A stretch of DNA of 64,000 nt, taken from a virus. Taxonomy: Duplodnaviria; Caudoviricetes. Positions 26,828 to 28,171 of this stretch are shown in pieces. A program made the translations under genes and the position numbers. Within the stretch, counting starts at the first letter, position 1. Each line of letters begins with the position of its first letter. The stretch is taken from positions 1-64,000 of the IMG/VR virus record IMGVR_UViG_3300028171_000090, one strand, 5' to 3'. The notes below the pieces were generated by a model. It was not told the DNA's origin. It searched no databases and saw nothing but the letters and a program-made list of their open reading frames with translations.

Positions 26828-26830
26828 GTC

Positions 26831-26954
26831 AAAATAAGTAGAGTAAGGGACTAAGCCCTTACTCTTCTAGCATAATCTAAACCAATAAGTTTAAAGGAAT
26901 AAAATTGTATATGCTACATTAAACTAGAGAAACAATCATGACCACTAATGGGTT
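26831..26954 (-). ncRNA. Candidate sRNA unit F
   Basis: AACA-tataat-TA at 26965-26954; AGATTATGC; terminator stem 26841-26864. Confidence 0.5.
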
Positions 26955-26979
26955 AATTATATGTTAGTAAAAATGGCGG

Positions 26980-27130
26980 TAAAAATGACCATACCAATTA
27001 AGGTATGGTCGGTTGCATAGTCTAATGTTCTCTGGATCGGTGAGCATCGAGTAACTTATTGTGTAAGTTGATTGCGTAGTCTTAACTCGATGACTGAGAA
27101 TAAAATATAAGTTAGAATATACTTGATTAT
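26980..27130 (-). ncRNA. Candidate sRNA unit E
   Basis: AACA-N7-TA variant at 27142-27130; two motifs; terminator stem 26987-27010. Confidence 0.4.
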
Positions 27131-27142
27131 ATTTTTTTTGTT

Positions 27143-27699
27143 ATAATGGTACCAGAGAACTGACCATAGGGATGATAAAATAGGTATAACGACTAGAGAT
27201 TAGTGTTATTTTTTATCCCCTATGTATAAGATATATGATTAGAGTATATGTTAATTAAAACATATAAGATTGTAATGTATTCATATACTCTAATAGTTAA
27301 TAAGGTTACAGAGGGTTGAAGAATACAATATACGATTAGTAGTTAGTGTAAGCCCTCTGAACCAGTGATCAAAATAAAGATAACAACATATCTTTTTTAT
27401 TTTGATTAGCATAGTCTAGCCCTATAAGTACAACGACAGTTAAAATCGATAATTTGGTCGTCTCCCGTAAAACGGTGACAGTGCATAGTCTGGTGTGTAC
27501 TTATGGACTTGTGATACATATTATTCTGGGCAGAATAATATTATAAAATATAGACTTTCATAAATCTGCGTAGTCTAATACGACGAGCGTGGAATAACAT
27601 TTGGAATTGTTTTGCGCTCTACTTTTGGGTAAAAGATAAGCTATAGTTTTTAGTAGAAACTGGCGTTTCTAAGCATAGTCTAGTTTTTATTCCACGTCT
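27143..27699 (-). ncRNA. Candidate long multi-hairpin RNA unit D (may run through to 26980)
   Basis: AACA-gaataa-TA at 27710-27699, with +1 three nt before stem 27687-27696/27588-27597; four motifs; many long stems. Confidence 0.5.
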
Positions 27700-27720
27700 A
27701 TTATTCTGTTATGTAATGTG

Positions 27721-27822
27721 TAAAAAATAATTAGAGTAGAACCAATTACGGTTCTACTCCTGTTAAGGTGAATGTGCATAGTCTCTTCTTTCTGTAAAGA
27801 GATAAAATCTATAGGCTTTCTT
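27721..27822 (-). ncRNA. Candidate sRNA unit C
   Basis: AACA-tacata-TA at 27833-27822; AGACTATGC; terminator GAGTAGAACC/GGTTCTACTC. Confidence 0.55.
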
Positions 27823-27844
27823 ATATGTATGTTACTATAATATT

Positions 27845-28028
27845 AAAAAATAATGAGAGATGACCAACGGGGTCATCTCATGCATAATCTACGCTTTTTA
27901 AAGGAAATAGTTTTGTTGGACTAACAAAAATGCCAGTTAAAAAATCACAGAAACGTAGTCTTCATCAAAGGAAAATAAGCCATTAGCTTTACTCTAAACC
28001 TATACTTGCCTATCGGCTTTGCAGGTCT
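27845..28028 (-). ncRNA. Candidate sRNA unit B
   Basis: AACA-taatat-TA at 28039-28028; three motif copies; terminator GAGATGACC/GGTCATCTC. Confidence 0.55.
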
Positions 28029-28046
28029 AATATTATGTTACAAATG

Positions 28047-28145
28047 TAAAAGATGAGTAGGAGATTATCCTACTCATCAACCCTTTTGCCAGTTAGGGCG
28101 GCTTAGTCTATACGGAGTTAATAACTTTGTGTATTTTTTATAGTT
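28047..28145 (-). ncRNA. Candidate sRNA unit A
   Basis: AACA-tattag-TA at 28156-28145; AGACTAAGC; terminator GATGAGTAGGA/TCCTACTCATC. Confidence 0.55.
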
Positions 28146-28171
28146 ACTAATATGTTAAGGGTAATAAAAAT

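Follow-up and report, generated by a model that had tools for sequence, protein, structure and literature searches.

Two arrays of putative late small RNA genes sharing a tag-plus-hairpin module in an AR9-like jumbo phage

The DNA discussed here, referred to as the window, is the first 64 kb (64,000 nucleotides, nt) of the 223,016-bp viral contig IMGVR_UViG_3300028171_000090. Between a polyphosphate kinase 1 (PPK) gene on the plus strand (24585..26783) and a tail-fibre-type operon on the minus strand lies array 1 (26784..28171), which carries 11 copies of a short motif distributed over six predicted minus-strand transcription units. The PPK gene adjoins array 1 in every relative seen. On the other side, the array begins directly after the gene of a 59-amino-acid (aa) protein (28172..28351, minus strand), the last gene of an operon that also encodes 1019-aa and 271-aa proteins. 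The 59-aa protein, which looks XkdX-like, has phrog_8908 (unknown function) as its sole family match. Array 1 is located at a switch of gene orientation and GC skew. A first-pass annotation of the window had described 1.3 kb without an open reading frame (ORF) at this place, and no ORF of at least 60 aa was found in 26784-28171.

The motif reads GCRTARTCT on the plus strand and AGAYTAYGC on the minus strand. Nine exact plus-strand copies are present (26870, 27015, 27074, 27409, 27483, 27568, 27673, 27776 and 27882), against about 0.02 expected from shuffled sequences in 1.3 kb of one strand, so the recount and the shuffles bear out the same claim of the first-pass annotation. The whole window holds 13 copies on both strands compared with 1.9 in shuffles (per 64 kb). 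Two of the three degenerate copies proposed earlier, at 27953 and 28101, differ from the motif at one position each, whereas the third, at 28021, is the conserved 5' end of unit 2. The spacing of the copies is irregular (47-335 nt). The words TTTAAAGGAA and TGCCAGTTA, previously listed as shared between units, are present as described; apart from the motif, the T run and the promoter, no word is enriched in the arrays.

On the AGAYTAYGC strand, each unit is laid out as an AACA-N6-TA word, a variable body, the motif and a stem-loop that begins within 0-5 nt, and the final stem-loop of most units precedes a T run. With the motif hereafter called the tag, the conserved block runs in the order tag, hairpin, T run, TTTTTTACA and promoter, the next promoter lying about 10 nt past the terminator. 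The typical predicted fold consists of a 5' stem-loop, an open tag and a terminator. Body length ranges between 15 nt and >100 nt. Counted from the predicted late promoter, a tag follows after 27-190 nt, and one to four tags occur per transcript. The predicted RNAs are about 90-250 nt long, with the exception of unit 4.

All six units of array 1 are read from the minus strand. Unit 1 (28044..28156) has its AACA at 28156, a predicted start at 28145 and the motif variant AGACTAAGC at 28109-28101, followed by a predicted small hairpin with a CUGGCA loop and a predicted terminator at 28078-28052. Unit 2 (27847..28039; predicted start 28028) contains motifs at 27961-27953 (one mismatch) and 27890-27882 and a terminator at 27879-27857, and unit 3 (27723..27833; predicted start 27822) a motif at 27784-27776 and a terminator at 27760-27733. 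The long unit 4 (27150..27710, about 550 nt; predicted start 27699) has no canonical terminator and carries four tag-hairpin modules, with motifs at 27681-27673, 27576-27568, 27491-27483 and 27417-27409, each followed by its own small hairpin. The AT-rich, terminator-less tail of unit 4 includes palindromes at 27238-27294 and 27368-27406 with perfect 13-nt and 11-nt inverted repeats, which could be a DNA-level element such as an origin. Unit 5 (26977..27142) has an N7-spaced promoter at 27142, motifs at 27082-27074 and 27023-27015 and a terminator at 27010-26987. Unit 6 (26830..26965; predicted start 26954) has a motif at 26878-26870 and a terminator at 26865-26840, beyond which lies a two-way terminator (26786-26816) that it has in common with the kinase gene.

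A search for the complement of the motif found background copies, of which the single intergenic one belongs, on the opposite strand, to an orphan unit outside the arrays (1216..1343, minus strand). This unit has AACA at 1343, a predicted start at about 1332 and the motif AGACTACGC at 1315-1307, and continues with a small hairpin and a two-way terminator (1241-1216).

The second array, array 2, lies at 220.9-223.8 kb of the genome in the opposite orientation and has nine exact motif copies on the other strand (genome 221484-222614). It is truncated by the contig end (genome 223016). A contig from the European Nucleotide Archive (ENA), L079, is 99.99% identical to that end and extends 5.9 kb beyond it; there, array 2 spans 2.85 kb, with 15 late-type promoters and 19 exact or one-mismatch motif matches, two of which are probably due to chance, having no hairpin after them. 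An AR9-type early-promoter word closes array 2. The genome (~230 kb) is about 90% complete, which sets the scope of the whole-genome domain searches reported below. Approximately 21 units are predicted per genome (6 in array 1, ~14 in array 2 and 1 orphan), with about 30 tag copies. Outside the arrays the motif is at background, with 10 copies on both strands of the 223-kb contig compared with 13 for a reversed control pattern; the genome-wide scan proposed on first pass therefore finds it uncommon elsewhere. Similarity between units is confined to the terminator-promoter blocks and the tag, apart from a single 72-nt match.

Array 2 is headed by a purine-rich (GA-rich) structured RNA of about 340 nt (genome 221010-221352; L079:6346-6640) with GNRA-type loops and its own late-type promoter. 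This RNA is kept in all three clades, where 17 predicted pairs are maintained via two-sided changes, and beyond its final hairpin it ends in an ACTAY-type word. It may represent a new structured RNA in its own right or act together with the small units as their partner. The body of unit 12 of array 2 (L079:8380-8470; L076:10830-10920) is unusually conserved between two clades, in a stretch that holds TCTAAAAC, then GGTATGCACA and CCTGTTGTATGCGTAATA, which suggests that it has its own function. Upstream of array 2, a 155-nt direct repeat (90% identical; L079:433-588 and 1553-1707, genome ~215097-216371) flanks an HNH/NUMOD4 endonuclease gene, an arrangement resembling the insertion of a mobile endonuclease. 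A 278-aa protein encoded near array 2 is unrelated to the 271-aa protein of the array 1 flank.

The promoter word of the units, AACA-N6-TA/G, corresponds to the experimentally mapped late-promoter consensus of phage AR9 (PMC5312081). Its minus-strand occurrences proposed on first pass (28156, 28039, 27833, 27710 and 26965, plus the N7 variant at 27142) are all confirmed, and its strand bias is pronounced: sense and antisense counts of AACA-N6-TR are 6 and 0 in array 1, 12 and 1 in array 2, and 17 and 0 in the relative L114. The phage also uses this word for its own genes. Of 227 genes, 59 have it upstream, compared with 16 in the antisense control; its distance to the start codon is mostly 16-60 nt, and the profile upstream of the phage genes is sharp (AACAnnnTAnTA). 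Sigma-70-like sites are not enriched in the arrays. Terminators follow the same strand logic. Five units of array 1 had been said to end in a hairpin with a U-rich tail; six terminator-like hairpins are found on the minus strand, compared with 0.8 expected, while the stretch with array 2 has 12 on the AGAYTAYGC strand (10 within the array itself) compared with 1.1 expected. The tag is missing from about 140 terminators of ordinary genes in the rest of the genome and hence is no part of a general termination signal.

Tag and hairpin form a module. With a threshold of -5 kcal/mol or better, 17 of the 30 tags of this phage have a hairpin that starts no more than 6 nt further on, compared with 21% of control positions in the same arrays (p = 5e-5). 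The corresponding count in a clade of relatives at 89% identity is 9 of 12, and in a sister clade at ~64% protein identity, where the tag is a 10-mer, a hairpin follows it directly in 16 of 19 copies compared with 27% of controls. The coupling extends to internal copies with non-terminator hairpins. All 40 distinct hairpins pair despite their differing sequences. When 18 terminator modules were folded to a consensus on a MAFFT alignment, the stems came out of register, and no formal covariation claim is drawn from it.

The phage itself is an uncultured, deep-branching member of the AR9-like jumbo phages, to judge from a polymerase subunit. The ORF at 16489-18006 carries Rpb1 domain 2 and encodes a split beta-prime-like subunit of a multisubunit RNA polymerase, whose closest cultured kin are non-virion polymerase subunits of the jumbo phages AR9, PBS1, vB_BpuM-BpSp, phiR1-37, Listeria phage LPJP1 and Staphylococcus jumbo phages, at only 32-36% identity; this distance is the reason for the placement. 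The sole hint to the host comes from the PPK, for which the nearest cellular homologues found belong to gut metagenome-assembled genomes (MAGs) of Lachnospiraceae, at only 41-42% identity.

Relatives with syntenic arrays were recovered from metagenomes by means of protein look-ups and one exact-hairpin scan. They comprise L072 (98%), L073 and L078 (89% clade), and L074, L075, L076, L077 and L114 (~64% protein identity); L115, with a flanking protein 74% identical, probably belongs to the 89% clade. Both arrays are kept in synteny in the ~64% clade. Units are orthologous across relatives, unit 1 in the 98%, 89% and 64% relatives alike, where it keeps its CUGGCA-loop hairpin through compensatory changes, and the stem of the unit 2 terminator is invariant in all. 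Units have also been gained and lost between relatives. Array identity between this clade and the 89% clade is 0.72-0.78 with many indels, compared with 0.65-0.72 at flanking third codon positions; identities per sequence class in this comparison are blurred by unit gain and loss. Independent metagenome assemblies (L073, L074 and the present contig at genome 223016) break inside the arrays, and public contigs of this phage group will therefore often lack the arrays or have them split.

The tag itself differs between the clades. In the 64% clade, AGAYTAYGC is absent from both arrays and TTACTACA(GC/TT) occurs instead, with 19 copies in L075 and L076 and 15 in L114. Two tag positions are demonstrably orthologous between the clades, anchored by the hairpin agaaacgYcagtttct and by the unit 2 terminator. 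Both tags have the core ACTAY in common, and unit 1 of the 64% clade retains a decayed version of the other tag. Since the new word stands in all copies, including orthologous positions, and the old word is absent, the tag was replaced in concert across about 20 copies at two loci. Such a concerted replacement is the signature of co-evolution with a single recognising partner. An earlier suggestion that the C/U variation of the motif reflects pairing with a fixed partner, GCGUAGUCU, finds no support: no such partner sequence stands out in the genome, motif-complementary sites are present in the phage genome as background copies only, and the tag of the sister clade is a different, non-varying word.

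Anatomy, strand logic, conservation and the concerted change of the tag can all be read in the sequence itself. The anatomy is that of small RNA (sRNA) genes, and the tag changes like a recognition site; the arrays are therefore best viewed as encoding late sRNAs with a common handle. On balance, we consider it probable that they form a family of late-transcribed sRNA genes in which tag and hairpin serve one trans-acting factor, the RNAs most probably being multicopy decoys. According to this proposal, the phage non-virion RNA polymerase would read each unit from its AACA-N6-TA late-type promoter to give an RNA of about 90-250 nt. Each RNA would bear one to four modules, in which a single-stranded tag of 9-10 nt (AGAYUAYGC in this phage) is exposed 0-5 nt before a stem-loop, and the last stem-loop would double as an intrinsic terminator. 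Tag plus hairpin would be the recognition site of the factor, most probably a sequence-specific RNA-binding protein or RNase of host or phage. The preferred sub-mechanism is titration: late in infection, an excess of binding sites would occupy or misdirect the factor, the dosage being provided by many genome copies, ~20 strong promoters and ~30 sites. Because several handles can share a transcript, body length is free, units turn over and bodies drift almost neutrally, a multivalent decoy or sponge is favoured, not decisively, over a set of precise guides. A late sRNA family with AR9-type promoters, a shared handle and a variable remainder had been proposed on first pass and appears to be the best-supported account.

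Several observations weigh against this proposal. The promoters, starts and ends of the units are predictions, and we infer, from sequence features, the transcription of the units, the existence of the factor and its titration by decoys. Late expression is an odd time for a counter-defence decoy. A concerted change of a short word is equally expected of DNA iterons that co-evolve with a DNA-binding protein, and some bodies have stayed conserved from clade to clade, for example in the 5' portions of units 1 and 2, and are hence not mere spacers. The hairpins are no more stable in the sense than in the antisense orientation, and their G-U pairs (9 vs 5, p = 0.10) show no significant excess in the sense orientation; it is therefore the promoters and T runs that assign the strand. 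Searches of the 90%-complete genome found no Hfq, ProQ/FinO or RNase III domain and no TnpB/Cas12f-type, reverse transcriptase (PF00078) or Y1 transposase (PF01797) domain. Among ten large proteins of the window, PADLOC found no match to Cas or any other RNA-guided effector; its only matches were RecD-like helicase models, at ORF 47259-48512. A simple motif screen yielded no protein of at least 500 aa with two HEPN-like R[NHKQD]xxxH motifs.

If the units act in trans, they could do so as guide or regulatory sRNAs, with tag and hairpin as a 3' handle for a chaperone or effector and the bodies pairing with host or rival-phage RNA or DNA, comparable to snoRNA boxes or CRISPR RNA (crRNA) repeats. 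A variable body precedes every module, trans-acting sRNAs are usually arranged in this order of 5' stem-loop, open tag and terminator, conservation between clades is seen for some bodies, and fast-evolving bodies would suit an arms race. We nevertheless regard guides as unlikely, although they are the foremost alternative: body length varies (15 to >100 nt) and several tags can share one transcript, antisense matching of the bodies to the rest of the phage genome gave low-complexity matches only and no significant complementarity, and the genome searches offered no candidate effector or chaperone. Another alternative concerns Cas13. The part of the Cas13 repeat made up of 5' flank and stem is where Cas13 processes its pre-crRNA, and Cas13 is the CRISPR type that is still effective against jumbo phages whose DNA is shielded from DNA-targeting systems. 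The units might be type VI RNA anti-CRISPRs that mimic this flank and stem, are bound or cut there by the Cas13 of the host and load it with spacer-less RNAs. In the LwaCas13a repeat, TAGACTAC stands directly before the stem, as does AACTACA in that of EsCas13d (PMC8869480, Table 2), and the tags of the two phage clades, (T)AGACTAYGC and TTACTACA(GC), occupy the same position relative to the stem. There are precedents for such an action, as phage RNAs that mimic repeats are established to compete dose-dependently for Cas proteins (PMC10651486) and extraneous crRNAs weaken Cas13b defence (PMC13187072). However, the match extends over 6-8 nt only and was found post hoc, the 3' flank typical of Cas13 repeats (CTAAAAC type) shows no enrichment downstream of the phage hairpins, and the phage stems are longer than those of Cas13 repeats and variable in sequence. 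Moreover, 400 sampled Lachnospiraceae genomes contained AGACTAY at repeat spacing in coding or tandem repeats only and in no CRISPR-like array, and the units appear, from their predicted promoters, to be expressed late. Mimicry of Cas13 repeats is a lead that is rated as unlikely, somewhat below guides. With similarly low confidence, the arrays as a whole may be viewed as an RNA-only means of counter-defence or takeover, in which some 30 mimics would be expressed from phage-polymerase promoters with the tag retuned by clade. The mimicked site would be the processing site of a Cas13-type repeat or that of some other host defence protein that is RNA-guided or cuts RNA. If true, the arrays would give the first description of an RNA decoy of the multicopy, array type in a jumbo phage.

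The remaining explanations do without an RNA function. The tags could be DNA-level sites, namely iterons for an origin-binding, partition or packaging protein or hairpin-word sites in single-stranded DNA, with transcription incidental or merely activating. Two distant clusters of a short, directly repeated word in opposite orientation would suit this role, as would the change of the word in concert between clades (as seen for iterons and their initiators), the position of array 1 at the gene-orientation and GC-skew switch, and the AT-rich palindromes inside unit 4. Yet no copy is inverted, and each is enclosed by promoter and terminator on the strand that is transcribed; the distance from each copy to its hairpin is fixed at 0-5 nt although the hairpin varies in sequence, a constraint that a protein binding double strands would not need; the hairpins lead into T runs and spacing is irregular; the orphan unit repeats the full promoter-tag-hairpin-terminator layout; and no Y1 (HUH-type) transposase or RAYT domain was found, other Rep-type nucleases not having been searched for. 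DNA sites are thus assigned only a small chance. Smaller still, and very low in our estimate, is the chance that the units are stacked regulatory cassettes, in which terminator-promoter modules accumulated at operon ends as insulators or recombination hot spots, comparable to the promoter-stem-loop cassettes of T4-type phages, and gene conversion spread the tag. Such cassettes would account for the fact that the most conserved block consists of hairpin, T run, TTTTTTACA and the next promoter, for the gain and loss of units between relatives and for the frequent breaks of metagenome assemblies inside the arrays. The tag, however, lies outside the terminator-promoter block and also accompanies internal, non-terminator hairpins, both arrays are syntenic across ~64% protein identity with all tag copies replaced, and the cassettes flank no ORFs.

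The system appears to fit no known family among those tested. Covariance models of Rfam 15 run against array 1, array 2 and the GA-rich RNA gave best E values of 0.14-2.3, far below gathering thresholds, so that the Rfam search suggested on first pass returned no family; ARAGORN detected no tRNA or tmRNA in the 64-kb window. A CRISPR array was rejected since only 9-10 nt are shared, spacing varies from 47 to 335 nt, the hairpins differ and the PADLOC, TnpB/Cas12f and HEPN searches described above showed no cas-like gene. A ToxI-type type III antitoxin was set aside because the repeats are neither tandem nor identical and the neighbours are the PPK gene and the tail-fibre-type operon. Retron msr/msd elements were dismissed for lack of a PF00078 match in the genome, and REP/RAYT or IS200/IS605-type hairpin sites for lack of a PF01797 match. 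Iteron criteria (strand independence and regular spacing) do not describe copies that all lie on the transcribed strand, within promoter-terminator units and 0-5 nt before a hairpin. Sibling sRNAs related by whole-length paralogy were likewise rejected, given that units resemble each other at the terminator-promoter blocks and the tag, with the 72-nt exception. When IMG/VR was scanned for pairs of motif copies at a distance of 95-125 nt, 62 loci emerged, all of them chance occurrences or coding or tandem repeats without the unit anatomy.

Comparison with the closest known systems shows both likenesses and differences. The sibling sRNAs LhrC1-5 and Qrr1-5 are encoded, as here, in tandem genes with their own promoters and intrinsic terminators and have a common short open motif; however, they are paralogous over their whole length and number 2-7, whereas the present units have unrelated bodies, amount to ~21, are viral and would be read from a phage-polymerase promoter. 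ToxI and phage pseudo-ToxI are repetitive RNAs of phages or plasmids in which the repeat is bound and cut by one protein. ToxI has near-identical 36-nt repeats arranged head to tail, a single promoter and an adjoining toxin gene, all of which are absent here. Iterons, such as those of lambda ori, P4 ori/crr and SPP1 oriL/oriR, are clusters of a short word, sometimes at two distant sites, that co-evolve with their binding protein. They act as regularly spaced double-stranded DNA, in contrast to copies that are each embedded in a promoter-hairpin-terminator unit on one strand. The PeSL elements of T4-type phages combine a repeated terminator-like hairpin with a phage promoter close after it, but they flank small protein genes and have no extra tag, whereas the arrays have no ORFs and each hairpin is preceded by a conserved tag. 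CRISPR arrays and phage mini-arrays also alternate a repeated handle by a hairpin with variable sequence, and their handle differs between related lineages; the present arrays lack near-identical repeats of 23-47 nt and have a promoter and terminator per unit instead of one leader. A further likeness is to RNA anti-CRISPRs (Racr; PMC10651486), small non-coding phage RNAs with their own promoter, of which the active part is a short sequence plus hairpin recognised by a host protein, and which work by competition and dosage, as the units would if they are decoys. The units, too, have a (predicted late) promoter close upstream. In contrast, Racr resembles a whole CRISPR repeat and is usually solitary, while here the resemblance to Cas13 repeats is limited to 6-8 nt and a stem, with no 3' flank, and ~30 copies occur in ~21 units with unrelated hairpin sequences.

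The arrays appear to be confined to this uncultured lineage, since none of four cultured relatives (AR9, BpSp, LPJP1 and Madawaska) has an ORF-free gap with at least four late-type promoters on one strand. ORF-free gaps without late-type promoters occur at AR9 95408-96788, LPJP1 31097-31897 and Madawaska 213010-214277; each repeats its own 8-mer five times (TGAAGATA, TCTTCTGA and ATGAATAC, respectively), and these are different repeat elements. The array had no blastn match among cultured phages, IMG/VR yielded no relatives when queried with the 271-aa flanking protein and the polymerase subunit, and full-text literature searches found no published description of such arrays.

Other genes of the window add to the picture of the phage. 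The PPK1 gene beside array 1 is full-length, with all four PPK domains, in a phage genome. A radical SAM protein (34165-35502, minus strand; phrog_1802, E 5e-62) is encoded in the same minus-strand block as the tail-fibre-type genes. Between 36000 and 38000, GC content rises to 0.41-0.45, compared with ~0.34 elsewhere, and GC skew is strongly negative; the rise coincides with ORF 36149-37591, whose 480-aa product has no family match, and with several ORFs that overlap on the two strands. A divergent DnaB-like helicase (44704-46353) and a RecD-like helicase (47259-48512) follow, and gyrase B-like and gyrase A/topoisomerase IV-like genes are adjacent at 50827-55656 on the plus strand.

The non-coding RNAs of phages are poorly known, and work on jumbo phages that encode RNA polymerases of their own has been almost confined to the proteins. 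Here, ~2% of a 230-kb genome is devoted to about 20 predicted RNAs that are separately promoted and separately terminated. Between sister clades all copies of the tag have been rewritten, a pattern pointing to specific RNA-protein or RNA-RNA recognition of importance to the phage, and tag plus hairpin offers a ready bait for finding the partner. Should the partner be a host defence protein such as Cas13, the arrays would represent RNA-based anti-defence at a new scale and in a new phage group; should it be a phage protein, they would point to a new kind of viral ribonucleoprotein.

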